From contig CAZUAQ010000015.1 of NCBI GenBank assembly GCA_964618455.1, positions 14,319 through 78,318 of the forward strand: DNA of 64,000 nucleotides, written 5' to 3'. The notes beneath the pieces are model-generated. The model was not told where the DNA came from. It saw only the letters and a program-made list of their open reading frames with translations, and did no database searches. Of this stretch, positions 9,650 to 47,731 are shown piece by piece; the first letter of the stretch is position 1, and each line of letters begins with the position of its first letter. Both the position numbers and the translations under genes were made by a program. Source of the stretch: an uncultured Planctomycetales bacterium. Its GTDB lineage: Bacteria; Planctomycetota; Phycisphaerae; UBA1845; PWPN01.

Positions 9650-9771
9650 TCCGGTTGAAGACGGTCACGCCATAAGCTTCCCCACCCCGTCGCGGATGGC
9701 GGGGCAGGACAAGCGCAATCTTAGATGCCCGCCTGATGGCGTGGCTCCACAACCTTGGACAGGTGAAGTTC

Positions 9772-12700
9772 ATGCAAGACAAGGTCAACCCCTTCCAGAG
9801 AACAAAGGTTACCGGACGACCGACGTTGCGACTTCTCGAATGGCGACGATCGCTGCGATCGGCCATCCTCCTTTCGGTGGTCGCCATTCTCCAGATACCT
9901 CAGATTGTGTCCGCAGCCAGCCCGCCAGACATCGAGGAGTCCGCCTCCGAATTGATGGTGGTCTTTGATCCGCGCGTTCCGGCGGCGGAGATCGATCAGA
10001 ATCTTCTTGATGCAGGGTTCAAGGCGAGCACGCCGATCGAAGGTCTCTCGCCAGGGCTTTCTGTGTTCCGATCCCTGTCGGTGCCCTCCACGACGGAACT
10101 GACGCGACAGGAACTGATGAGCGTCAGCGGCGTGGCCGCGGTGCGCCCCGTCTTTCTCCAGGAGAATTACAAACATCCCATATACATGAATGGGCAGGTG
10201 GTCGTTCGTTTCGACCCCGGCTCGATCAGCCTGGCCGAAGTCAAGGAAATGACCCGGGGATTGGACTCGATCTTCGTGCGGGAGATCTCCGGGCTTCCCG
10301 GAGCGTACGTGGTGCAGGTCATCGAGAGCCGCCGGAGTGTTCGATCCGTGGCATCGGCTTTCCGGGCAGATCCCCGAGTACGTTACAGCCACGCCAGCAC
10401 CATGTTCCGCCTCGTCTCGCATCAAGCGGCGAACCAGATCCTCGATCCACTCTTTCCCTTTCAGTGGCATCTGAACAACACGGGACAGCTCGAGGGTGCG
10501 GTTCCCGGGGCGGACATCAACGTCTTCGATGCCTGGGAAAACACGCTGGGCGAAGGGGCCACCGTGGCGGTGCTGGACGATTGCGTGCAGCGCGACCACG
10601 AAGATCTCGCAGAGAACTACCTGACCGGATCCGACTTCGCGGGAGCAGGTATCCTCTTTGTCATCATCGTGGATGAGGAGACGGATGAGATCACGATCGA
10701 GATCATTGAACCCGAATTCGACGATGATCCCAGTCCGTTTTACGGCCCTGATCCGACCGCTTTTGATCCGATCGGCGACTACCACGGAACGTCGGTCAGT
10801 GGCATCATTGCCGCCGCGCCGAACACGATCGGTGTTCGCGGCGTGGCTCCTCGCTCCAATCTCATCGGTATTCGAATCGGAATCGGCGATACGTTTACCA
10901 GCGATCAGGCCATTGCCGACGCCTTCCTTTTTGCCGAGGCGAATGGAGCCCAGATCATCAATAACAGTTGGGGCGGACCGGGCGGCCCGCTGTTTCCGTT
11001 GATCCCGAACGACGAGATCCTCTTTCCAAGCGTGATCAGTGATGCGATCACCGAGGTGGCCACCAACGGACGAGGCGGACTGGGTGTAGCCGTCTTCTAC
11101 TCATCGGGAAATGATAACACGTTTATCGACTTGGGAAATGCCTTTGCCGCCCTGAAGCACACGATCGCGGTCGGGGCGACCCTTCGTGATGATACGCTGG
11201 CGTGCTATAGCAACTTCGGTCCGGAACAATCCGTGGTGGCACCGGGGGGCGGGTCCGCGCTGCCCAGCGATTTTCCCACGATATTGGAGTTAATACTGGA
11301 ACCCGAGGTCTGTCTTGAAAACTCGATCGCGACAACCGACAACGAACGAACCATTGGACGCATACGCGGCGACTTTGACCTGGACGGTGAACTGGACGAG
11401 TGGAGGGACAACGTCGGTGCGAATCCCGCCCAGAAATTCCTCGACGTGTTCAGCGAGCTGTTCTGCATCAGCGACGATGACCTTCTCTGCATCCCCCTGG
11501 TCCCCGATCCCACAGCGTTGGAGGATTTCCCGAACACCAACTATACACAGCGCTTCAATGGGACGTCCGCGGCGTGTCCGGTCGCGGCTGGAACCGCCGC
11601 CCTGGTGCTCAGCGTGAACCCGAGCTACACGGCCTACCAGCTTCGCAACCTTCTGGAGCATACGGCGGACAAGCCCGATCGCATCAACGAAGAGTTCGAT
11701 GCGGTCACCGGTTTCAACGAGCGATATGGCCACGGGCGGGTGAACGCCGGCGCGGCGGTGGAAGCCGCCGAGAACGACCTCAGCTGGCCCAGTCCCGTGG
11801 AGAACGTCGTTCAGGCCGTGTCCCAGGATCGCATCCAGCTCGCCTGGGAACTTCCCGACTGGAACAATGACGGGCTTCCGGACGGCGATACGGCGGGTGT
11901 GATCGTGGCGGTCGGCCCGACCGGCCAGGTGAACTTTACGCCCGAAGACGGCGTCGAGTACACGGTCGGCCAGGAAGTCGCGCCGGATGTCGAGGTGATC
12001 GCTCGCGGCATTCTCAACAGCCTGGACGTGACCGGCTTCCCGACGGGCGAGTTCGACTTTGCCATCTGGACGTTCAACGCGGACAGCTTCTACTCCTGGG
12101 GACGTCGCGTCGGAGTGGAGACGAACAACCCCGATCTCGAGCCGCCGCTGATTTCGATTCGAGCCAACCCGACGGTGGGCGATCCTCCGTTGACGGTGCT
12201 GTTCACCGCCGGTGGAGTCGATCCCAACGAAGATGGATTCATCGAGTACCTGTGGGACTTTGATGACGGCACGACGGCCACGGGCCCGGCGGCGGAACAC
12301 ACCTTCGAGGTACCCGGAGCTTATGTCGTCAACGTCGAGGCCCGCACACCTTCAGGAGGACGGGCGTTCTCGAATGTCATCATCACGGTGAGTTCCGAAG
12401 ACAACGTCCTGCCGACGGCCGAGATCGTGGCGACCCCGCGTTCGGGTGATGCGCCGCTCTCGGTGATCTTCGAGGCGTCTGCTACCGATCTCGACGGCAC
12501 CGTCGTCGCGTATGAATGGGAATTTGGTGACGGCAATTCCGCCATCGGCCCGATTGTCGAGAATGTGTTCCTGAATCCCGGTACCTACGCGGTGACGTTG
12601 CGCGTGACGGATAATCGCGGTGGAACGGGTGCAGCCGTCGCGCCGATCGTCGTAACAGGCGTCGGCACGACCACGGAGAGCGCCGGGGCCACCGCCGGAC

Positions 12701-12804
12701 AGACGACCCCGGCCATCTGCGGTGCGGGTGTCGCGGGAGCGGCATCACTGACGTTCGTGGGATTACTCGGCATGGCACTCCTTCACCGGCGCCGTGTGAG
12801 CTGA
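9772..12804 (+). CDS. exported subtilisin-like serine protease (S8) with two PKD domains and a PEP-CTERM-like C-terminal anchor
   Basis: Catalytic triad contexts: VAVLDDCV (Asp), HGTSVSGIIAA (His), GTSAACPVAAGTAALV (Ser). Two PKD-like units (YLWDFDDGTTATG..., YEWEFGDGNSAIG...). The tail is ...GAGVAGAASLTFVGLLGMALLHRRRVS. Confidence 0.85.
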   Translation: MQDKVNPFQRTKVTGRPTLRLLEWRRSLRSAILLSVVAILQIPQIVSAASPPDIEESASELMVVFDPRVPAAEIDQNLLDAGFKASTPIEGLSPGLSVFRSLSVPSTTELTRQELMSVSGVAAVRPVFLQENYKHPIYMNGQVVVRFDPGSISLAEVKEMTRGLDSIFVREISGLPGAYVVQVIESRRSVRSVASAFRADPRVRYSHASTMFRLVSHQAANQILDPLFPFQWHLNNTGQLEGAVPGADINVFDAWENTLGEGATVAVLDDCVQRDHEDLAENYLTGSDFAGAGILFVIIVDEETDEITIEIIEPEFDDDPSPFYGPDPTAFDPIGDYHGTSVSGIIAAAPNTIGVRGVAPRSNLIGIRIGIGDTFTSDQAIADAFLFAEANGAQIINNSWGGPGGPLFPLIPNDEILFPSVISDAITEVATNGRGGLGVAVFYSSGNDNTFIDLGNAFAALKHTIAVGATLRDDTLACYSNFGPEQSVVAPGGGSALPSDFPTILELILEPEVCLENSIATTDNERTIGRIRGDFDLDGELDEWRDNVGANPAQKFLDVFSELFCISDDDLLCIPLVPDPTALEDFPNTNYTQRFNGTSAACPVAAGTAALVLSVNPSYTAYQLRNLLEHTADKPDRINEEFDAVTGFNERYGHGRVNAGAAVEAAENDLSWPSPVENVVQAVSQDRIQLAWELPDWNNDGLPDGDTAGVIVAVGPTGQVNFTPEDGVEYTVGQEVAPDVEVIARGILNSLDVTGFPTGEFDFAIWTFNADSFYSWGRRVGVETNNPDLEPPLISIRANPTVGDPPLTVLFTAGGVDPNEDGFIEYLWDFDDGTTATGPAAEHTFEVPGAYVVNVEARTPSGGRAFSNVIITVSSEDNVLPTAEIVATPRSGDAPLSVIFEASATDLDGTVVAYEWEFGDGNSAIGPIVENVFLNPGTYAVTLRVTDNRGGTGAAVAPIVVTGVGTTTESAGATAGQTTPAICGAGVAGAASLTFVGLLGMALLHRRRVS

Positions 12805-34557: not shown

Positions 34558-34776
34558 AACCCACGATTTCGTGAGCATTTCATGGGTTTCTGGGCGGAAT
34601 TCGCTTATGACTTCATCTTTTCTCCAACATCAAACAAGGTGATCTTGGTATCATACCGGTAGGATTGCTTTAAATTCGGGCTGAAGCCTCCTAACTCTCG
34701 ACCAAATCTAACAGGCACCCAAAAGGGAGTGCCGCACATTCACGCCCCCTCCGCGCCTCATCAAAGGAGATCGATC

Positions 34777-37071
34777 ATGTTCACTTCCATTCGCAGCTGG
34801 GTCGTTCTTTTCTGCGTTCTGACCGTCGGCCACGCCACGCTTCATGCACAGACGCCACTCGGCACGGAAATTACCTACCAGGGCAGGGTGGAGAAGAGCG
34901 GATCGCCGCTCGACGACACGGCGGACTTCGAGTTTTCTCTCTGGGACGCCGAAACGAACGGAAATCAGATCGGCTCGACGCAGATCGTCAGCAACGTCAC
35001 GGTCGACAAGGGTGTGTTCACGGTGGAACTCGACTTCGGTGCGAGCGCGTTCGATGGCGATGCACGCTGGCTCCAGATCGCCCTGCGCAGCCCGCATGAC
35101 CCGGGCAACACGCAGCTCCACGCCATATTGAGCCCGCGCCAGCCCATCACGGCCGCGCCGTACGCACAGTACGCCCTGGAGAGTCCCGGATCGGCGTGGA
35201 GCCAGAACGGGAGCGACGTGTACTATGACGCCGGCAACGTGGGGATCGGCACGACTGCCCCGACCGCCCCGCTACAAGTCGAAGGCACGGCGGTGGCGTC
35301 GAACATCTCGGTCCCGAATCCCGACAACCCCGGCGCCACCATCAACCTGAACTGGTTGAACGACGTTCCGCGCCTCCGCTACGGCGGGAGCGGAGCCGGA
35401 AACCACAACGGCTTCGCCATTCATGGGACCGGTGATTCCGTCAAGCTGCGTCTGCTCGACAACGGCGCGCTTGGGCTGGGCACCGACAGCCCCGGCAGCG
35501 TGTTCAACTCCAAGCTGGACGTCATCGGCGGGCACGTGGGCGTGAGCAACGACTACGGCTTCTTCAGCTTCAACAGCACCAGCGACGGCATCGGTGCCGG
35601 GCTGGATACCACATCCAGTGACGATCTGCATCTCTTCGCCGGGGGCTCGCAGCACGCGACCGTAACGGCCGACGGCAATGTCGGCATCGGCAGGTTAGAC
35701 CCTCTCCTTCGGCTTCACGTCGAAGAGACCGGGGACGGCGAGAACAGCGTGCTCAGGCTCGGTCGCATCGCACAGTCCAGCGGCAATTCGCAGTCCGTCA
35801 GTTTCCGGCTCGATCCGACGAACGAGGTCTTCAAGCTGGATGTGGGAGGCAATGGAAACTCATTTGCGAGGATCCACTTCGGCGACTCCAGCAGTCCCGA
35901 CAACGACGTCACGATGTTCGGAAACGTCGGCATCGGGACCACTTCACCGCAGGCCACGCTGCACGTCACCGAAGGCACCAGCGGAATGGGCGTGATCCTG
36001 CCCGGCCTGCGCGTGGAACAGAACGCGACTGGCCGCCCTCACGTCATCGGCGGGGCAAGTGAAAACGTGGTCACTGCCGACTACGCCGCCACGATCAGCG
36101 GCGGCGCGTACAACAGCGTCGAGAATAACCTCGGCACTGTCGGCGGTGGGGGCGATAACACGGCCAGCGGGGACAGCTCTACCGTCGGCGGCGGTTTACT
36201 CAATGAGGCCATCGGCTATGGCAGCACGGTCGCTGGAGGCGAGGACTGCACCGCTGGTGACAGCTACGCCACCGTGTCAGGAGGCTTTTTGAATCTGGCC
36301 AACGGCTGGTCCGCCACCATATCCGGAGGCCATCAAAATCAGGCCAACGGAGTCCTTGCCACCATATCTGGAGGCATTCTCAACAAGGCCGACGGGAGCG
36401 CTGCCACCGTTCCCGGGGGGTCCCGGAACTGGGCCGGCGGCGATTACAGCTTGGCCGCGGGGCGTCGAGCCAAGGTGCGAGACGCGGCAGAGTCCGGCGA
36501 CAGCGACGGCGACGAGGGAACATTCATCTGGGCCGACTCGACCGATGCCAGTTTCACCTCGACTGGACCTGACCAGTTCCTCATCCGCGCGGGCGGCGGT
36601 CTTGGACTCAACCGCAACGATCCATCTCACCCGTTGCACGTCGGCACTGACGGAACCAATGGCAACGGCGCCCATCTCACCGCTGGCGGCACCTGGACCA
36701 GCGGATCGAGCCGGGCATGGAAGGAGAACTTCCGCGCGCTGGACGCGGAGGAGATTCTCGACCGTGTCGCCGCCCTGCCGATCCAGCGCTGGAACTACAC
36801 CGGCAGTGACGAAGGCGACCACATCGGCCCGACCGCCGAGGACTTTCACGCGGCCTTCGGCCTCGGACACAGCGAGCAGTACATCGCCACGATTGACGCC
36901 GACGGGGTCGCCTTGGCCGCCATCCAGGCATTGAAGAAAGAACATGATGCCGCAATGGCCCGCAAACACGCCGAAATCCAATCACTCCAGACGCGGCTGG
37001 AGAGTCTCGAAGCATTGGTTGAAGAACTTAATCGCGAACAGCGCCCCTGGTCGTTCAATCAGGAGAAATGA
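34777..37071 (+). CDS. exported tail-fibre-like protein 1: conserved N-terminal domain, GNVGIG motifs, about 15-aa beta-roll repeats, C-terminal Peptidase_S74 intramolecular-chaperone domain
   Basis: SD AAAGGAGA lies 7 nt upstream. Signal peptide MFTSIRSWVVLFCVLTVGHATLHA/QTPLG. Eight to nine repeats of [AS]T[IV]SGGxxNxAxGxx at 36085-36477 (YadA-head/Hep_Hag-like). C-terminus SSRAWKENFRALD...IGPTAEDF...DGVALAAIQAL plus a coiled coil at 36706-37068. Confidence 0.85.
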   Translation: MFTSIRSWVVLFCVLTVGHATLHAQTPLGTEITYQGRVEKSGSPLDDTADFEFSLWDAETNGNQIGSTQIVSNVTVDKGVFTVELDFGASAFDGDARWLQIALRSPHDPGNTQLHAILSPRQPITAAPYAQYALESPGSAWSQNGSDVYYDAGNVGIGTTAPTAPLQVEGTAVASNISVPNPDNPGATINLNWLNDVPRLRYGGSGAGNHNGFAIHGTGDSVKLRLLDNGALGLGTDSPGSVFNSKLDVIGGHVGVSNDYGFFSFNSTSDGIGAGLDTTSSDDLHLFAGGSQHATVTADGNVGIGRLDPLLRLHVEETGDGENSVLRLGRIAQSSGNSQSVSFRLDPTNEVFKLDVGGNGNSFARIHFGDSSSPDNDVTMFGNVGIGTTSPQATLHVTEGTSGMGVILPGLRVEQNATGRPHVIGGASENVVTADYAATISGGAYNSVENNLGTVGGGGDNTASGDSSTVGGGLLNEAIGYGSTVAGGEDCTAGDSYATVSGGFLNLANGWSATISGGHQNQANGVLATISGGILNKADGSAATVPGGSRNWAGGDYSLAAGRRAKVRDAAESGDSDGDEGTFIWADSTDASFTSTGPDQFLIRAGGGLGLNRNDPSHPLHVGTDGTNGNGAHLTAGGTWTSGSSRAWKENFRALDAEEILDRVAALPIQRWNYTGSDEGDHIGPTAEDFHAAFGLGHSEQYIATIDADGVALAAIQALKKEHDAAMARKHAEIQSLQTRLESLEALVEELNREQRPWSFNQEK

Positions 37072-37469: not shown

Positions 37470-37832
37470 GCCCTGCAAGCTTTTACGTAGGATCAGCCCT
37501 GTTAGCGACCCATCCCGCTTTAAAGCATCAGCTTATTATTCCAACTTTTATTATGTCCCAAGGCTTACTTCGTGTAGCATATAGAAGCCTCCAAACGGGT
37601 CAGAGGCCCTCACCGGCTCCCGGTGAGGTGAATCCACAGATGAAGCAGACAGTCACCGATTCTCGCGGAGTGATCGGTTTACCGAAGGAATCCCCCTTGA
37701 CAGTGATGGTACCGAGACAGTGACGGTACTGAAAAAACCTGCTGCGCGCCTTCATGAATGGCGGCCGCCCGGAAAGGGACCATACGCCCTATTGTGGTAG
37801 CTGAGCATGGCGAGGGGCGAAAGGAGAACAAC

Positions 37833-40436
37833 ATGCAGGCAAGTGATCAGCGCGTCTTGCGAATTAACCACCATTGGCAGAACCGAGCACGTGGCAGAGC
37901 AGCGGTCGCATGCCTGGTGTGGATCGCGGCGCTAAGTGTCGGTACGCGTACTGCCCGGTCCGCCACAGCCGTGGACGATCAGATCAACTTCGTCGTCATC
38001 AACAGTACGAACCATGTCATCGATGTTCTGGCCAACGATCTCGATCTTGGTGGAGAGGTCGTGACTGCTATACCTGCTCAGCCCGCCAACGGCCAGGTGC
38101 AGATCATCGCCGGGGGCACGCAGGTGGCCTACACACCGGACACCGCGTACTGCAACGACGCCATCCCGAGTCCTCCGGATGTGTTCATGTATCAGCTCTC
38201 CGGCGGCAGCGTAGCGACGGTCAGCGTGGTCGTGGCGTGCCCGTTTGTGTTGAAAGATCCGGGCAGCTTTGACACGGAGGGGGATCCGAACGTTCTGAGC
38301 TGGTACGAGGCGCGGGCTTTCTGTCGAACGCAAGTCGGGACGGACATCGCGCATAGCAAGTGTGATCAGGCGAACCCGGGCGGCGGCATGAGCGCGACGA
38401 ACGGCAACTCGTGTCCGGACATTCCCGCCTGTCTGCCGACGGACTCGCCGACTCGTTGCGGCCGACGTCAAATCCTGGAGATGCAACGCATCGCCCAAGA
38501 ATCACGGCTGAACATATGGACGGGCATCCGATGGTTCATTCGGCTGTGCAGTCCCAACGGAGCCGGATGCCAGCTCGAGAGGCGATTCACCTGGGTGGAT
38601 GGTACGCCGTTGGAAGAAGGTAATTCGGCTTTTCCTTTTTACGGTCCACTGTCTGAATTCTATCTGAACGGGGATACTACGCTTCAATCGTGTGGATTTA
38701 TGCGCGGCCGCTACGCTGAGGGGTACTTGGGCTGTACGTGCGTCGGCGGCGGAAACGACGGTCTGGCTTGCGACGGCTCGGATGATTCCTGCCCGGGAGG
38801 CGATTGCCTGGATACGGAGGGTTACCCCTGCAACCTTTGCGGATGTTACGCGGGACCCGTCAATCAGGGGAAGCCGTGTGATGAAACCGGTGATTGCGGC
38901 AACAACGGGGTGTGCTTCGACGCCGGCGAGTACGGTGTGGATTGCGTCGGGTCCAACTTTGGAATGCTGGCCCATGAAGAATGTGATAATGCGTCACCCA
39001 CATTTTTTCCCGTGACCCATGTACTTTGTGATAATCCGAAACTTGGGTTTGAAGTGTGCGGGTGCGACGATCCGAATGACTGTCCGGCCGGCTTTAATTC
39101 GTGCGGCCCGGGAAAGACGTGCAGCAGTACGAATGTCTGTTGGCCTGCGGGGCAGGGGCAAGAAGGCGATCCGTGCGAGTTTCCCAACGACTGTGCGGCC
39201 GGACTCTCGTGCGACGTTTCGTGTACATTCGACCAGGAGTGCAGCCATACGGACGACGCCGGTTGGCCGATCTACTATCCGGAGGCGCATGGCACGCACA
39301 CGTGCATGCCGACGATACCGGCCATGCTGGGTGACAGCGACGATGATGGGTTTCACGATCAGGAGGAAGGGTGCCCGCTTGATCCCAACAAAGTCACGCC
39401 GGGGGATTGCGGGTGCGGTGCGGTGGAGGTCGATTGTGACAACAATCTGATCTCCGATTGCATCGACCTTGACCATCCGGCTCGGTTTGAAGGCTTCGCA
39501 TCGGGGGTTGGGGCGTTTCAGCTTAACGGCACGGCGAGTGTCGACAGCGAAAGCATCCGGCTGACGGAAGCAGTTCAAGCACAAAACGGATCGGTGATCT
39601 TCGAGCCTGTGTCGAGCGTGCCGATCGACAGCTTTACCGTGACGTACGATTTCTTCATGGGCGGTGGTACCGGCGCGGACGGCATGAGCTTCGCGCTGAT
39701 CGATGCCGACGTGACGGACGATACGATCCTGCTCGGTGAGGGTGGGGCCAATCAGCCATTCGTCGTCAGCCTGGACACGTATCGCTGGAATCCTGCCGGC
39801 GGAAATCACGCTCTCTTGCGGAGTTATGGCGCGACACTGGCTGATGTGTTGGTCGCTCAGCCATTGGATGACGCAACGTGGCAGAAGGCTTCGATCACCT
39901 TTGAAGCCGGCGCCGCGACACTGGTGTTGACGGATGCGAACGGCGTCGACACGACGATCTTTTCGTCGGTGTCGGTTCCCGGATGGTCAGCCATTCGGGC
40001 GCGTTACGGATTCGGCGCTCGCACGGGAGGGGCGACCAATGAGCACCGCGTGGATAACGTCCGCTTCACAGCCACGTCGCTGACCAACGACTGCAACGGT
40101 AACAGCACGCCCGATCCATGCGACCCCGACGCGGACGGCGATGGCGTGATTGACGACTGCGATCTCTGTCCCGGTACGGTTTCCGGTGCGACGGTTGACG
40201 TGGAAGGCTGTCCCGATCCTTCGATTCCAGCCGACTTCGACGATGACGGCGACGTGGACGCCCACGATGTGGATGCGTTTATCGCATGTGCTTCCGGTCC
40301 GACCGTGCCCATCGCGGGCGGCTGCGAGGACAAGGATCTCGACAACGACGGTGACGGAGATCAATCCGACTTCGCGATCGTGCAGCGCTGCCTGAGCGGT
40401 GAGAATATTCCGGGCGATCCGAACTGTGCGGATTAG
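37833..40436 (+). CDS. exported multi-domain lectin/cysteine-rich giant with C-terminal TSP3/dockerin-like module
   Basis: SD AAGGAG lies 7 nt upstream. Signal/TM AAVACLVWIAALSV. Cadherin/VCBS-like unit (VIDVLANDLDLGG..., about 37965-38237). C-type-lectin-like unit (SWYEARAFC...IWTGIRW...FTWVDGTP, about 38280-38717). About 200 aa with more than 35 Cys. Legume-lectin/LamG-like unit (FQLNGTASVD...GADGMSFALID..., about 39480-40073). TSP3 plus double DxDxDG module at 40113-40433. Confidence 0.8.
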   Translation: MQASDQRVLRINHHWQNRARGRAAVACLVWIAALSVGTRTARSATAVDDQINFVVINSTNHVIDVLANDLDLGGEVVTAIPAQPANGQVQIIAGGTQVAYTPDTAYCNDAIPSPPDVFMYQLSGGSVATVSVVVACPFVLKDPGSFDTEGDPNVLSWYEARAFCRTQVGTDIAHSKCDQANPGGGMSATNGNSCPDIPACLPTDSPTRCGRRQILEMQRIAQESRLNIWTGIRWFIRLCSPNGAGCQLERRFTWVDGTPLEEGNSAFPFYGPLSEFYLNGDTTLQSCGFMRGRYAEGYLGCTCVGGGNDGLACDGSDDSCPGGDCLDTEGYPCNLCGCYAGPVNQGKPCDETGDCGNNGVCFDAGEYGVDCVGSNFGMLAHEECDNASPTFFPVTHVLCDNPKLGFEVCGCDDPNDCPAGFNSCGPGKTCSSTNVCWPAGQGQEGDPCEFPNDCAAGLSCDVSCTFDQECSHTDDAGWPIYYPEAHGTHTCMPTIPAMLGDSDDDGFHDQEEGCPLDPNKVTPGDCGCGAVEVDCDNNLISDCIDLDHPARFEGFASGVGAFQLNGTASVDSESIRLTEAVQAQNGSVIFEPVSSVPIDSFTVTYDFFMGGGTGADGMSFALIDADVTDDTILLGEGGANQPFVVSLDTYRWNPAGGNHALLRSYGATLADVLVAQPLDDATWQKASITFEAGAATLVLTDANGVDTTIFSSVSVPGWSAIRARYGFGARTGGATNEHRVDNVRFTATSLTNDCNGNSTPDPCDPDADGDGVIDDCDLCPGTVSGATVDVEGCPDPSIPADFDDDGDVDAHDVDAFIACASGPTVPIAGGCEDKDLDNDGDGDQSDFAIVQRCLSGENIPGDPNCAD

Positions 40437-40515: not shown

Positions 40516-42624
40516 ATGAGTTTACGAACGATCGGAAAGACATTGATTATTGTGCTGGCGGTGTTTCCCAGCGTGACGTCGGGCGCCGACTACGTCTGGG
40601 ACGGCTCTCGCACTTCCACCAACTGGAACGCCCTGGGCCCCGGCTTCGAATTCGATACCAATTGGACGGCGTCTCTCTTCTTTCCCGACTCCAACGACAC
40701 CGTCACCTTTCCCGAAACGGCGGCCGACTTTATCGTCACGCTCAACGGCAACCGCTCGGTCCTGTCCGCCACGTTCTCCGGCGCGAATGGTTACACGCTC
40801 AACGACGACACGCTGACGCTGCTTACCGGCGACCTGACCGCCACCGGCACGGCCACGCACACGATCAACAGCAACGTGACCCTGGGCAGCGCCGGCAACT
40901 GGAACATCGCCGGCGACCTGATCCTCAACGGTAATCTGACGGGCGGGCTCAACCTCGAACTGCCCGGCACGGGCTCGCTGACGCACACGGCCGGCACGAG
41001 TTCGCTCAACAAGGTGACCATCGGACCGGCCCAAACGGTGAATCTCACCGGCGGCAGCCTTTCCGCCACGGCCGGCCTGGACAACTCGGCGGGCGGAACG
41101 CTCAATCACCGCGATGGCGCGCTCAATATCTCCGGCAGCGGCTTCCTCCCCACCGCCGGCACCAGCGACTACACTATCGACGGCCCCACGGACGCCGATC
41201 TCCCCCACCTGACCCTCGGTGAAGGCGCCACCCTCAACACCCTCAGACTCACCGTCGGCGATGACGAAAACGGCGCACTCACCCTCATCGACGGCGCCGT
41301 CGTCAACAGCACTGGAGGCAACGTCGGCGACTTCACCACCAGCCTCGGCTCTGTCACCGTCTCGGGCACTGACCCCATCGGCGACCCCTCCACCTGGGAC
41401 ATAACAGGTTTACTCGAACTGGGCGGCGACGGCACGACTCTGCTCATCGACGGCGGTGGGCAGGTCTCCGCATCCTCCATCGATATTGCTCGGACCACGA
41501 CCGAGGACGCCTCGGTCACCGTCAGCGGAACGGACTCCAACGGCAACCCATCGGCCCTGACCGTCAGCGGCCAACTCCGCCTGGCCAACGGCTACCCCAG
41601 TGACGCATCGCTCGACATCCTCGACGGGGCCCACGTATCCAACAACAGCGCCTCACTCGGCCCCAACGACAATGACTCCTCCAGTATCGACGTCCTGGTG
41701 AGTGGAGCCGATTTCAACAACAATCCCGCCACCTGGACCAGCAGCGGCGACCTGGACGTCGGCACGAGCGACCTGGATTACACCTCGACGAGAGTCGACA
41801 TCGACACCGGCGGCCTTGTCACCGTCTCGGGAACCGCCGCCGTAAACCTCAGCGGGCGCGTCCGCCTTCAGGGCGGCACGTTCATCGCCTCGACCATCGA
41901 TCACACCAATGGCGGCATGTTCAACTTCACCTCCGGTGAGCTCAACGTGGATAACTTCGAGGGGGTGTTGGTGCAGAACGGCGGCACGCTCTCGATCGGA
42001 GATTCGCCCGGCCAGACGAACATCTCGCAGGACTACACGCTCAACGCCGGGTCGCTGGACATCGAACTCGGCGGGACCGCGCCGGGTGTCGAGCACGATC
42101 AACTCGCGGTCACCGGCACGGCCAACTTGGGCGGCACACTCGATGTATCTTACGACAACTTCACCGCGACGCCGGGGCAGTCGTTTGTCATTCTCACCGC
42201 CGGCACGCTCTCAGGTACGTTTGGCACGGTCAACTACCCCGACGGACAACCCTGGACCATTGAGTACGACACCAATGCCGGAACGGTAACGGTCACGGTT
42301 CCCTGTCCGGATGGCGACGCCGACGACGACGGGGTGTGTGATAGTAACGATCTCTGCCCGAATACGGTTCCCGGTGCGCCGGTGGATGGTGATGGCTGTC
42401 CTTCGCCCGCGATCCCGGCCGACTTCGATAACGACGGCGACGTGGATGGCGATGATGTCGACGCGTTTGAGGCGTGTGCCTCCGGACCGGCCGTCCCCAT
42501 CGCGGGCGGCTGTGAGAGCAAGGATCTCGACAATGACGGTGACGGAGATCAATCCGACTTCGCGGTCGTGCAACGCTGTCTGAGCGGTGAGAATATTCCT
42601 GGCGATCCGAACTGTGCGGAATGA
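40516..42624 (+). CDS. exported PATR (autotransporter-associated beta-strand repeat) beta-helix protein with C-terminal TSP3/dockerin-like module
   Basis: Signal peptide MSLRTIGKTLIIVLAVFPSVTSGA. PATR-type start YVWDGSRTSTNWNA...NWT...DTVTF...VLSATFSGANGYTLN. Long T/G/N/L-rich beta-helix region. Shared module at 42301-42621. Confidence 0.8.
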   Translation: MSLRTIGKTLIIVLAVFPSVTSGADYVWDGSRTSTNWNALGPGFEFDTNWTASLFFPDSNDTVTFPETAADFIVTLNGNRSVLSATFSGANGYTLNDDTLTLLTGDLTATGTATHTINSNVTLGSAGNWNIAGDLILNGNLTGGLNLELPGTGSLTHTAGTSSLNKVTIGPAQTVNLTGGSLSATAGLDNSAGGTLNHRDGALNISGSGFLPTAGTSDYTIDGPTDADLPHLTLGEGATLNTLRLTVGDDENGALTLIDGAVVNSTGGNVGDFTTSLGSVTVSGTDPIGDPSTWDITGLLELGGDGTTLLIDGGGQVSASSIDIARTTTEDASVTVSGTDSNGNPSALTVSGQLRLANGYPSDASLDILDGAHVSNNSASLGPNDNDSSSIDVLVSGADFNNNPATWTSSGDLDVGTSDLDYTSTRVDIDTGGLVTVSGTAAVNLSGRVRLQGGTFIASTIDHTNGGMFNFTSGELNVDNFEGVLVQNGGTLSIGDSPGQTNISQDYTLNAGSLDIELGGTAPGVEHDQLAVTGTANLGGTLDVSYDNFTATPGQSFVILTAGTLSGTFGTVNYPDGQPWTIEYDTNAGTVTVTVPCPDGDADDDGVCDSNDLCPNTVPGAPVDGDGCPSPAIPADFDNDGDVDGDDVDAFEACASGPAVPIAGGCESKDLDNDGDGDQSDFAVVQRCLSGENIPGDPNCAE
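42218..42624 (+). repeat. 407-bp direct repeat, copy A (3' end of the PATR gene)
   Basis: Hand alignment to 45060-45466 gives 399/407 identical with no indels. The offset is exactly 2842 bp. Confidence 0.9.
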
Positions 42625-42782
42625 AGGGCGATACGGCTATGCGGCGGGCCTGGTGAATGGCGACCCCGAGCCGGCATCGGTGGCGCTGCTGATGCTCGGT
42701 GGGCTGGCGCTGCTCATGCCGAGCGGTATGCCCGGCTCGAGAAACTGATGTCGACACGCGAACTCGAACAGGAGGACCTGAA

Positions 42783-45014
42783 ATGAATCTTTCGAAGCAC
42801 ACTTCTCGAATTATCCAGAATCTGCTCACCGCGGTGGTCTGTGCGGCCGTCTTGTCGGGATCCGCAAGGACCGCCCACGCCCAGACGCCGCTGGGAGCCG
42901 TGTGGACGTATCAAGGAAAGCTTGAACTGAGCAGCTCGCCGGTCGATGACACCGCCGATTTCGAGTTCTCTCTCTGGGACGCCGACGTGAACGGCAACCA
43001 GATCGACTCGACGCAGACGGTCAGCAACGTCGAGATCGTGGACGGGTTGTTCACGGTCGAGCTCGACTTCGGCGCGGATGCATTCAACGGCGACGCCCGC
43101 TGGCTGGAGATATGGGTACGTAGTCCGCACGACCCAAGCGACTTAACGTCGTATGAACTTCTCAGTCCGCGCCAGCCGCTGACGGCGGCGCCGTATGCCC
43201 TCTTCGCCCTCGACAGCGGAGGTGGGGGCACGGGCGACGGCCATTCGCTCGACGCCGTCGATGGCACGCCGACTGACGCGGTGTTCGTCGACAACGACGG
43301 CAACGTCGGGATCGGGACCACCACCCCCGGAGTTCCGCTCGACGTGTATGGATCCTTGCGTGTGAGTCGCGCCGAACAACTTGATCAGGCACACACAACA
43401 GGGGTGGGCTTCATTACAGAACTCTCCATTGGCCAATCTTTTACAGCCGGCTCGAGCGGCCCCCTGACCAGAATCGATGTCCGCACCTTGGCTGCCAGCC
43501 TGTCGTCAGGGGGTACATTGTCGATTTATGAAGGCAACGGCTACGGAGGCACCTTGCTGACAACCCAACCGTACACGTGGCCCGTCGGGCAGAACATGTG
43601 GATAGCCAATACGCTGGTCAACCCGGTCAGTGTGTCGGCGGGCCAGCAGTACACGTTTCGGTTCCAGAGTTCGGACGGCAGCATGCGGCTTGCTATGGAC
43701 GGCGAGGGCGGTTATCCCCTGGGCTCCCTGATCGACTACCCCGATTATGACCTGCGATTCCGCACCTACGTGATTCCGGATTCAGCCCCGGCGCTTGCTG
43801 TCACTGATTTGGGGAACGTCGGTATCGGGACGACCTCTCCCTCCCGGCTCCTCGACGTCAACGGTACGGCCAAGATCGGCGGCAGCCTGTTTTTCGATTC
43901 GCCGAGCACCTTCGAGGTGGCCCACGAGAACAACACGGGTATGCGCATCGATCCGGTCGCGAACAGCGTCCACCTCGAGGCGGACAATCTCCTCGGTCTC
44001 ACGCTGACCGCTGGCGGGAACGTCGGCATCGGTACGTCAGACCCACTCCGACGGCTTCACGTCGAAGAGACCGGGGACGGTGAGAACAACGTGATCAGAC
44101 TCACTCGCAAAGCCCAGTCCAGCAGCGATTCGCAGTCCGTCACCTTTTGGCTCGACCCGACAAATGAGGTCTTCAAGTTGGATGTGGGAGGCAATGGAAA
44201 CGCAGCGGCGAGGATCCACCTGGGGGACTCCAGTAGTCCTGACAACGACGTGACGATGCTCGGCAACGTCGGCATCGGAACGGCTACTCCCACGCGCGGA
44301 AAGGTCGATATCGAGGGATTCGAAAACCACACGCCCGGTCCATTTGGCTACCTGAACGACACCGGAGGCTCGGGAACCAATCCCGGCACGGGTCCAACCA
44401 CCTACTCACTGTACGCCTCGCATCGCATCGCCGCGAGCGAGTTCAACGCCCATTCCGACGCGCGGATCAAAAACGTGCTCGGGCGATCCGACGGCGACGC
44501 GGACCTCAACACGCTGATGCGGATCAAGGTGACGGATTACACGATGGCCGACACCGTGGCCCATGGCGACCGGCCTCGCAAGAAGGTGATCGGCCAGCAG
44601 GTCAGCAAGGTCTTCCCGCAGGCGGTTACGACCTCGACCAACGTTGTCCCGGACATCTATCGCCTGGGCGATGCCGAGTCCTGCTGGATCCGGCTGGACT
44701 CGCCCGTCGAGCCGCCGTTGCGGTCTGGCGATCAAGTTCGGCTGATCACCGGCGACGGCGCCGCGCTTCACGAAGTGCTCGACGTGAAGGAAGACGGATT
44801 TCGGGTGTCAGCGTCTGTCAGTGGAAGCGTCTTTGTGTACGGCCGACAGGTGGATGACTTCCATCACGTCGACTACGAAGCGATTGCCATGCTCAACGTC
44901 TCCGCGACGCAGGCGCTCAACGAGCAGCTCAGTGAAAAGGACGCCGAGATCAAGGCGCTGAACGAACGCCTGGCCCGGCTCGAAGCGCTCGTCGAGCGGC
45001 TGTCTTCGGAGTGA
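42783..45014 (+). CDS. exported tail-fibre-like protein 2 (paralogue of fibre 1) with an S74 chaperone domain carrying an internal insertion
   Basis: SD AGGAGG upstream. Signal peptide ...AVLSGSARTAHA/QTPLGAVWTYQGKL. The N-terminal domain and the internal GNVGIG...LHVEETGDGEN...KLDVGGNGN...SSSPDNDVTM cassette are shared with fibre 1. C-terminus HSDARIKNV...coiled coil at 44454-45011. Confidence 0.85.
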   Translation: MNLSKHTSRIIQNLLTAVVCAAVLSGSARTAHAQTPLGAVWTYQGKLELSSSPVDDTADFEFSLWDADVNGNQIDSTQTVSNVEIVDGLFTVELDFGADAFNGDARWLEIWVRSPHDPSDLTSYELLSPRQPLTAAPYALFALDSGGGGTGDGHSLDAVDGTPTDAVFVDNDGNVGIGTTTPGVPLDVYGSLRVSRAEQLDQAHTTGVGFITELSIGQSFTAGSSGPLTRIDVRTLAASLSSGGTLSIYEGNGYGGTLLTTQPYTWPVGQNMWIANTLVNPVSVSAGQQYTFRFQSSDGSMRLAMDGEGGYPLGSLIDYPDYDLRFRTYVIPDSAPALAVTDLGNVGIGTTSPSRLLDVNGTAKIGGSLFFDSPSTFEVAHENNTGMRIDPVANSVHLEADNLLGLTLTAGGNVGIGTSDPLRRLHVEETGDGENNVIRLTRKAQSSSDSQSVTFWLDPTNEVFKLDVGGNGNAAARIHLGDSSSPDNDVTMLGNVGIGTATPTRGKVDIEGFENHTPGPFGYLNDTGGSGTNPGTGPTTYSLYASHRIAASEFNAHSDARIKNVLGRSDGDADLNTLMRIKVTDYTMADTVAHGDRPRKKVIGQQVSKVFPQAVTTSTNVVPDIYRLGDAESCWIRLDSPVEPPLRSGDQVRLITGDGAALHEVLDVKEDGFRVSASVSGSVFVYGRQVDDFHHVDYEAIAMLNVSATQALNEQLSEKDAEIKALNERLARLEALVERLSSE

Positions 45015-45466
45015 TTGCTGAGGATATGGCAAACGTTAGCCCGCGCTCGGTCCGGTATCCGTTTGGCACGGTCAACTACCCCGACGGACAACCCTGGACC
45101 ACTGAGTACGACACCAATGCCGGAACGGTAACGGTCACGGTTCCCTGTCCGGATGGCGACGCCGACGACGACGGGGTGTGTGATAGTAACGATCTCTGCC
45201 CGAATACGGTTCCCGGTGCGCCGGTGGATGGTGATGGCTGTCCTTCGCCCGCGATCCCGGCCGACTTCGATAACGACGGCGACGTGGATGGCGATGATGT
45301 CGACGCGTTTGAGGCGTGTGCCTCCGGACCGGCCGTCCCCATCGCGGGCGGCTGTGAGAGCAAGGATCTCGACAACGACGGTGACGGAGATCAATCCGAC
45401 TTCGCGGTCGTGCAACGCTGCCTGAGCGGTGAGAACGTTCCGGGCGATCCGAACTGCGCGGATTGA
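45011..45466 (+). CDS. orphan TSP3/dockerin-like C-terminal module ORF (duplicate of the PATR gene 3' end; possible remnant or recombination cassette)
   Basis: GTG start overlaps the fibre-2 stop (GTGA). There is no signal peptide. From aa 18 onward it is near-identical to the last 135 aa of the PATR protein. Confidence 0.5.
   Translation: MIAEDMANVSPRSVRYPFGTVNYPDGQPWTTEYDTNAGTVTVTVPCPDGDADDDGVCDSNDLCPNTVPGAPVDGDGCPSPAIPADFDNDGDVDGDDVDAFEACASGPAVPIAGGCESKDLDNDGDGDQSDFAVVQRCLSGENVPGDPNCAD
45060..45466 (+). repeat. 407-bp direct repeat, copy B
   Basis: See copy A. Seven of the eight mismatches lie in the last about 100 bp, and four of those match the module of the lectin gene (40.3-40.4 kb). 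Confidence 0.9.
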
Positions 45467-46963: not shown

Positions 46964-47731
46964 ATGCTCGCCAAACGTATCATTCCGTGCCTCGATGTTC
47001 ACGCCGGTCGCGTGGTCAAAGGTGTGAACTTCGTGAATCTTCGCGATGCGGGAGACCCGGTGGAAATCGCCCGCCAGTACGAGGAAGCCGGCGCGGACGA
47101 ACTCGTCTTTCTCGACATCACCGCCAGCCATGAGGATCGGGACATCATCCTTGACGTGGTCCGTCACGTGGCGGAGGAATGCTTCATGCCCTTCACGGTC
47201 GGAGGTGGAATCCGCACGATCGACGATGTCACGCGTCTGGTTCAAGCTGGAGCGGAAAAAGTGTCCATCAACACGGCGGCGGTGCTCAATCCTGCCATCG
47301 TGACCGAAACGGCCCGGCGCTTCGGGCGTTGCTGCACCGTCGTCAATATCGATCCGAAACGCGTGCACAAAGAGGGTCGCGAATTCTGGGATGTCCACAT
47401 TCATGGCGGGCGAACGCCCACGGGCAAGGAGGCGGTGGCCTGGGCGCGGGAGGTGGAATCACTTGGCGCCGGCGAAATCGTACTCACCTGCATGGACGCG
47501 GACGGTACGAAGGACGGGTACGACCTGGAGATTACCCGCGCGGTTTCGGAGGCGGTATCCATACCGGTAGTCGCTTCCGGTGGCGCGGGGTGCCCTGATC
47601 ATCTGGCTGATGCCGTGACGATCGGCAAAGCGGATGCGGCACTGGCGGCGAGCATTTTCCACTTCGGCACCTACACCATCGCCGAAACAAAACAACATAT
47701 GGCGGGACGTGGCATTCCCGTTCGGATATGA
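46964..47731 (+). CDS. hisF: imidazole glycerol phosphate synthase cyclase subunit
   Basis: [54 protein letters not shown]. Confidence 0.93.

Follow-up and report, generated by a model that had tools for sequence, protein, structure and literature searches.

A PEP-CTERM-like sequence behind the stop codon of a planctomycete PATR adhesin gene is probably a remnant displaced by a dockerin-type end module

We analysed a 64,000-nucleotide stretch of DNA (hereafter the window; contig CAZUAQ010000015.1 of an uncultured Planctomycetales bacterium) in which an adhesin gene with T5SS/PEP-CTERM-associated repeats (PATR) is followed, behind its stop codon and in the +1 frame, by a PEP-CTERM-like sequence, here called the remnant. 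The best explanation, which we consider highly probable, is that a C-terminal dockerin-type module carrying its own stop codon was recombined into the locus, cutting off the final 40 codons of a PEP-CTERM end, which are now untranslated and starting to decay. According to this explanation, a PEP-CTERM sorting signal would formerly have ended a gene at 42626-42748, and recombination would have set a module consisting of a TSP3-like part and a four-cysteine dockerin upstream of the old signal. The protein would now end in ...PNCAE, with the old end left in the spacer, in another frame and with no route to translation. In place of a membrane-anchored tail with exosortase-type processing, the protein would thereby have acquired a calcium-binding end of the dockerin type for its attachment to the cell surface.

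PEP-CTERM is defined by a near-invariant PEP motif, a transmembrane (TM) stretch of about 14 residues and a basic cluster of about five residues, and has been reported for Planctomycetes (Haft et al. 2006, PMC1569441). An earlier note on this DNA, made from the letters and their translations, had placed the TGA of the PATR gene at 42622-42624, an upstream stop of the +1 frame at 42581-42583, a PEP tripeptide at 42665-42673 and a hydrophobic helix after it, and translation confirmed all four. Delimited by the TGAs at 42581-42583 and 42746-42748, the +1 frame reads AVRIFLAIRTVRNEGRYGYAAGLVNGDPEPASVALLMLGGLALLMPSGMPGSRN (54 residues), in which the Pro-Glu-Pro is directly followed by a hydrophobic stretch of 15 residues, ASVALLMLGGLALLM (42674-42718). 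With the hidden Markov model (HMM) TIGR02595 (NCBIfam PEP_CTERM, curated cutoff 16), the 54-residue frame reached 16.3 bits and the 40-residue part behind the stop 17.3 bits, and PF07589 gave 13.8 bits (gathering score 20.7). The remnant aligned to positions 2-18 of the 24 in the TIGR02595 profile; positions 19-24, which hold the basic tail, were unmatched. The basic cluster is indeed missing, as the earlier note had said: the tail PSGMPGSRN carries a single Arg, and the two alternative frames after ..LALLM, read for an Arg cluster one indel away (CRAVCPARETD.. and AERYARLEKL..), contain no basic cluster either. Since basic-poor tails also occur in a few in-frame family members (for example P0018, ..LLFSRNLLIH), the missing cluster alone is no proof of decay.

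The distinctiveness of the motif was evaluated using six-frame scans and simulation. The remnant was the sole match in the 64 kb to a regular expression in which PEP or a near variant precedes 18 uncharged, largely hydrophobic residues. With an HMM built from 30 PEP-CTERM tails of homologues, the remnant scored 17.1 bits, the runner-up among six-frame matches in the window scored 8.7, and the maximum over 200 windows simulated by an order-3 Markov model was 13.6. The motif is real and non-random, and it is positioned where the PATR family would carry the signal.

The remnant is cut off from the PATR open reading frame (ORF) by the TGA and by the change to the +1 frame, and it is not the C-terminus of a translated signal-peptide protein. 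The earlier note had described this frame as free of ATG codons, which holds for the part before the PEP; ATGs do occur after it, and there is a GTG at 42587, the start of a listed 53-residue ORF. No ribosome-binding site was found before this GTG, and a separate small protein was rejected because its start lies within the PATR coding region and lacks such a site. Codon-position GC of the remnant in its own frame is coding-like (0.725/0.55/0.825 at the first, second and third positions). The third-position value (GC3, 0.825) compares with a mean of 0.75 in the real genes of the window and is reached by 0.1% of off-frame 40-codon windows; true spacers have 45-64% GC. Because of this coding-type composition, the remnant appears to have been coding until recently. 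It takes up most of the 158-nt spacer between the PATR gene and the next gene, which starts at ATG 42783 with AGGAGG ahead of it at 42770-42775. Scans of this spacer revealed no promoter-like or terminator-like site, and 42625-42800 has no second copy within the window.

The adhesin itself begins with a signal-peptide-like N-terminus, matches TIGR04393 with 28.5 bits (cutoff 23) and ends in ...PGDPNCAE (...DFAVVQRCLSGENIPGDPNCAE) before its TGA. Its database homologues are PATR/PEP-CTERM proteins from Planctomycetota. An identical protein of 702 residues is recorded from an NCBI contig of 119,627 bp, and the window proteins are singletons from this one contig. An in-frame (V)PEP, hydrophobic helix and basic tail were found at the end of 30 of the 43 PATR homologues in the database, in line with what the earlier note had expected of this family. 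In most homologue tails an aromatic-Gly dipeptide stands 8-20 residues before the PEP, where a generic dockerin-like segment (..WQxNFG..) ends. RYG occupies this place in the remnant, its YG beginning 11 residues ahead of the PEP; this match to the family pattern is weak but consistent. In PATR homologues without a dockerin, the PEP directly follows the last passenger strand, and at this point the window gene has the start of its module (..TVTVTV-PCPDG).

The closest relatives of the PATR gene are two tandem paralogues on one contig (L001, 3607-9000), which are 58% identical over the first two thirds; across P0003, P0007 and these paralogues, identity of the PATR-repeat passenger is 41-58% over the N-terminal two thirds. 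L001 is a long-read contig of 2.06x coverage, on which frameshifts split each paralogue into several called genes, so that the database entries P0001 and P0002 have artefactual C-termini. When the frameshift errors were read through, each paralogue consisted of a dockerin-like segment followed by ..IPEPTSIVLLAVSLAVCGLRRCQR.., a PEP-CTERM. Fusions of PATR with the four-cysteine module also occur in other lineages (for example P0052).

The module that now ends the PATR protein is present three times within 5.4 kb (copies A, B and C; Table 1). Copy B, at the end of the PATR gene, shares 80% amino-acid and 82% nucleotide identity with copy A, and the stop codon has the same position in both. In a three-way alignment the similarity stopped at the stop codon, and the sequences beyond it were unrelated. 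The three copies in 5.4 kb, with similarity ending at the stop in every pair, show that modules have been exchanged between neighbouring genes. The 3' end of the PATR gene is 97% identical to 45044-45466 (410/423 nt), with the alignment ending at the TGA, and a block of 300 nt is identical between copies B and C (42218-42517 and 45060-45359), which indicates that the exchange was recent. The recent coding past of the remnant fits this near-identity. Past the 300-nt block, copies B and C differ at 7 positions, at several of which copy C matches copy A, a pattern that suggests gene conversion. The resulting X-Y-X layout (42206-42624, then 2.4 kb, then 45044-45466, at a spacing of 2842 nt), together with the 300 identical bases, suggests that a duplication, a conversion or a Campbell-type insertion took place recently. 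The ORF with copy C has no signal peptide and starts 12 nt past the stop of the gene at 42783-45014.

The end of the module was further compared across databases and metagenomes. Among 17 homologues of the module in protein databases, 14 end in Cys plus two residues. Of 204 loci that a metagenome scan turned up, 80 were fetched. Their sequences show the stop of roughly 90 module copies; in about 85 of these the stop, mostly TGA, falls 0-2 codons past the last Cys-x-x, and no copy examined runs in frame into a PEP-CTERM. Therefore, because the stop stands at the canonical module end in copies A and C and in most other copies, creation of the stop at 42622-42624 by an indel is not credible, and on this comparison it can be regarded as genuine, the natural end of the module. 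The relic with a recombined TSP3/dockerin module carrying its own stop, to which the earlier note had leaned, is thus the explanation that we also prefer, given the three neighbouring copies, the bases identical between copies B and C and the shared module end.

An alignment of the 72-residue module core showed four invariant cysteines and two DxDxDGDVD loops. PF00404 gave 14.4 bits for the window copy and 18.6 bits for the neighbour's copy (threshold 22.9), and weak matches were obtained for all 16 aligned members (E <= 1, best 2.4e-5). Sequence matches of the module to dockerins in the PDB were weak, and no NCBIfam model covers the dockerin core. An AlphaFold2 model with a predicted local distance difference test (pLDDT) score of 95 has its helices at residues 15-22 and 49-58; among PDB structures, the dockerin 2y3n_B matched it best, with a template-modelling score (TM-score) of 0.77 to the target and a root-mean-square deviation of 1.7 A over 59 columns. 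The module is thus predicted to have a dockerin fold of two calcium-loop and helix repeats. The four-cysteine module was seen at the extreme C-terminus of otherwise unrelated secreted proteins, both in the window and in loci L008-L087. Its strictly terminal position suggests a role in sorting or attachment.

Downstream contexts at 73 non-redundant loci were examined for a PEP-CTERM behind the module stop. A PEP-CTERM-like sequence on the same strand was found at one of these (L007; ENA ERZ24794666 NODE_170880, 1149-1283), in frame 0 rather than +1: ..CAD-TGA is followed there by RRRGPERLRSVSDRVHGSVAIAPEPTTLPLLAPRALALLQRRR, PEP-CTERM-like to its end (..AIAPEPTTLPLLAPRALALLQRRR), and a dockerin half-repeat without Cys precedes the signal in the +1 frame (DADADRSDFGLFQIEFTGASP). 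This looks like the broken end of an older dockerin-like and PEP-CTERM tail, stranded by the same kind of module insertion. The occurrence of the two cases in two different frames fits relics and not a shared recoding mechanism. The L007 tail is in frame with the UGA, so that read-through is formally possible there, and a gene for an IS200/IS605-type Y1 transposase lies about 350 nt beyond the stranded PEP-CTERM. A second match behind a module, at L032, was rejected because it corresponds to the C-terminus encoded by a convergent gene on the opposite strand. A different arrangement was observed at L084, where a good PEP-CTERM tail (..VAPEPASLALIGLTCALLTARRKSRR, 24 bits) in the ORF from 487 runs without a stop into the apparent signal peptide of the next protein, and the end of that protein is PEP-CTERM-like as well; either a fusion of two genes or the loss of a stop may account for this.

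Table 1. Coordinates of the remnant, the module copies and the adjoining genes in the window.
Feature	Positions	Strand	Description
Displaced PEP-CTERM remnant (probable), +1 frame	42626..42748	+	GRYGYAAGLVNGD-PEP-ASVALLMLGGLALLM-PSGMPGSRN-TGA; HMM, six-frame scans, codon GC
PATR (T5SS/PEP-CTERM-associated repeat) adhesin gene	40516..42624	+	702 aa; ORF and translation; TIGR04393 match
Copy B, 107-aa C-terminal module	42301..42624	+	TSP3-like part and 72-aa four-Cys core of predicted dockerin fold at 42406-42621; own TGA
Copy A, end of lectin/Big_9 protein gene (37758-40436)	40116..40436	+	ends ...PGDPNCAD-TAG
Copy C, 146-aa ORF, 3' fragment of a PATR and module gene	45026..45466	+	ends ...PGDPNCAD-TGA
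Duplicated PATR 3' end	42206..42624	+	repeated at 45044-45466; reaches about 90 nt into PATR-specific sequence ahead of the module
Downstream gene, 743-aa protein	42783..45014	+	weak, sub-threshold Peptidase_S74 (chaperone of endosialidase) match; C-terminal coiled coil

Several observations weigh against the stranding of a PEP-CTERM end by the module. The 13 codons between the stop and the PEP (GRYGYAAGLVNGD) resemble neither the end of the PATR passenger nor what follows copies A and C, which bears on the exact history of the junction. No orthologue of the PATR locus was found in the collections searched, where the closest homologue reaches 58% identity, so that the ancestral state has to be drawn solely from paralogues and distant homologues. 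No exosortase was detected when about 45 proteins of the window were scanned with Pfam, and no other PEP-CTERM sequence was present in its six frames; past use of the PEP-CTERM system by the source genome can consequently only be presumed. Furthermore, the well-preserved coding composition of the remnant is also compatible with continued translation. A scan of genomes of Genome Taxonomy Database (GTDB) species with the PATR protein, swamped by the common ADFDNDGD pattern, recovered only the distant relatives L003 and L004 and no close orthologue. In-frame PEP-CTERM proteins are encoded at related Planctomycetota loci with the module.

Among other explanations, a relic of a different gene comes nearest, and we regard it as possible, if clearly the less likely history. 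Here an incoming PATR and module gene, or its 3' end, would have overwritten a resident PEP-CTERM gene and left the tail of the latter as the remnant. The fusions of PATR and four-cysteine module found elsewhere, such as P0052, fit this history in that the architecture predates the genome of the window, as does the linker of the remnant, which has 13 residues of its own whereas family members without a dockerin carry the PEP right after the passenger; the X-Y-X layout, moreover, attests sizeable rearrangements at the locus. However, both histories leave the same non-functional remnant, nothing discriminates between them, and, given the strong link of the family to PEP-CTERM, the ancestral end of the gene itself is no less likely a source. 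With the order of events set out above, the remnant would derive from the PATR gene's own ancestor rather than from an overwritten resident gene.

The earlier note had also raised a +1 shift at GAA-UGA-A, which found no support. In a programmed +1 ribosomal frameshift, some ribosomes would skip the U and append EGRYGY...PEP and the TM segment, producing a junction that reads ...PNCAE-EGRYGYAAGLVNGDPEP... (..GDPNCAE-EGRYGYAAGLVNGDPEPASVALL..) and a membrane-anchored exosortase-substrate form beside the dockerin-ended form. The remnant does lie in the +1 frame straight across the stop and stays open for 40 codons at coding-like GC3, and tails with few basic residues, as in P0018, are known from in-frame family members. 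The site itself is unfavourable: tRNA-Glu on GAA is unable to re-pair on AAU, in contrast to the situation at CUU-UGA-C in prfB, and at GCG-GAA-UGA-A the move from GAA to AAU re-pairs at 1/3 positions. In addition, the upstream sequence CCGAACTGTGCG has no Shine-Dalgarno-like run, the surrounding RNA folds no better than shuffled sequences (z = 0.16), and the site has no Rfam match. Copies A and C stop at the same codon with no signal behind them, only 1 of the 73 independent module loci has a PEP-CTERM-like sequence downstream, in frame 0, and the basic cluster needed for topology is absent. A programmed frameshift is therefore very unlikely.

Equally improbable, in our estimate, is a leaky stop through a non-canonical +1 event, in which GAA would be decoded out of frame after GAA-U with no tRNA slippage. 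In a minority of adhesin molecules the dockerin module would then be accompanied by a PEP-CTERM-type membrane tail. The sole positive hint for such a leak is the coding composition of the remnant; if true, it would amount to recoding-based dual localisation of a surface protein in Phycisphaerae.

A sequencing or assembly indel, whereby the gene would truly continue in frame into the PEP-CTERM and the TGA would result from one extra base, is likewise given very little credence. The assembly appears to be of an unannotated metagenome type, and the related long-read contig L001, at 2x coverage, is full of such frameshifts. However, the stop falls exactly at the canonical module end, two residues past the fourth Cys, as it does in the two window paralogues and in about 85 of some 90 others; an error would have had to make a stop at precisely that codon, and none of the module copies examined continues in frame into a PEP-CTERM. 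Least probable of all is a chance resemblance in GC-rich, Ala/Leu/Gly-rich non-coding sequence, for which the sub-threshold Pfam score, the TIGRFAM score barely above its cutoff and the lack of a basic tail would speak, but which has to contend with a unique six-frame match, a score reached in 0 of 200 simulated windows and a position directly behind a member of a family that normally bears PEP-CTERM.

The adhesin cluster that contains the PATR gene extends over about 34.7-46.6 kb of the window and comprises two Peptidase_S74-like paralogues, the lectin gene, the PATR gene and the fragment with copy C. The downstream HisF (46964-47731) is 88% identical to proteins from Phycisphaerae metagenome-assembled genomes. 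Relatives with 90-92% HisF identity keep the order hisF-T2SSE-T2SSE-CvpA; in one of them (L092, 91% HisF identity) the adhesin cluster is missing upstream of hisF, where different genes are found, and in four others (L088-L091) the contigs end just upstream of hisF. Because it is absent in a relative with conserved downstream synteny, the adhesin cluster appears to be a strain-variable region.

The two Peptidase_S74-like genes (34729-37071 and 42783-45014) encode paralogues of about 750-780 residues that are 55-57% identical over two blocks of about 180-190 residues. Both contain GNVGIGTT-type repeats and a C-terminal coiled coil; they are phage-tail-fibre-like and are interleaved with the adhesin genes. 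The Peptidase_S74 match scored 34.5 for 34729-37071 and 18.8 for 42783-45014 (Pfam threshold 22), and a comparison of their 5' regions revealed no similarity. Elsewhere in the window, an S8 protease (9736-12804) with two PKD domains ends in ..PAICGAGVAGAASLTFVGLLGMALLHRRRVS (tail ..AICGAGVAGAASLTFVGLLGMALLHRRRVS), which combines Cys/Gly, a TM segment and RRR. The earlier note had called this tail related to PEP-CTERM, an assignment that could not be upheld: it is not a PEP-CTERM, and its matches to GlyGly-CTERM (13.9, cutoff 15.5) and MYXO-CTERM (13.1, cutoff 20) are both below threshold. Perhaps it represents a variant C-terminal sorting signal that has yet to be described.

If the remnant is indeed a relic left by module insertion, the locus records the replacement of a PEP-CTERM surface-attachment signal by a dockerin-type end module with its own stop. 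This swap would be set in a variable adhesin cluster of an uncultured Phycisphaerae-like planctomycete, with the same pattern in L007, an unrelated metagenome contig. What most likely changed is the mode of holding the PATR protein at the cell surface, and the comparison suggests that the four-cysteine dockerin module and PEP-CTERM are alternative C-terminal 'addresses'. This would be of use for the annotation of the large and poorly understood surface proteins of planctomycetes. The finding is an evolutionary relic that gives a small view of sorting-signal exchange in planctomycete adhesins, and it is no new mechanism or kind of system.

With regard to known systems, the arrangement shares with the prfB +1 frameshift an in-frame UGA followed by an open +1 frame that codes for a recognisable protein segment, but differs from it: the P-site codon is not slippery, a Shine-Dalgarno-like stimulator is absent upstream, and neither paralogues nor homologous loci conserve the arrangement. 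Like type I/II dockerins of cellulosomal proteins (PF00404; 2y3n_B and 2vn6_B), the module is predicted to form two calcium-loop and helix repeats. Unlike them, it has four invariant cysteines, stands strictly at the extreme C-terminus in Planctomycetota and scores below the Pfam cutoff, and to our knowledge it has no known cohesin partner here. The remnant resembles PEP-CTERM (TIGR02595/PF07589) in its PEP followed by about 14-15 hydrophobic residues and in its place, where a gene for a Thr/Ser/Asn-rich repeat protein of Planctomycetota with a signal peptide has its 3' end; it differs in being out of frame, in lacking a start and in carrying one Arg instead of a five-residue basic cluster. 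PATR proteins (TIGR04393, PF12951; P0003, P0007 and the L001 paralogues) have the same passenger, and many of them join a dockerin-like segment to a C-terminal signal; however, theirs end in an in-frame PEP-CTERM, whereas the window protein ends in the four-cysteine dockerin module and has the signal behind its stop.

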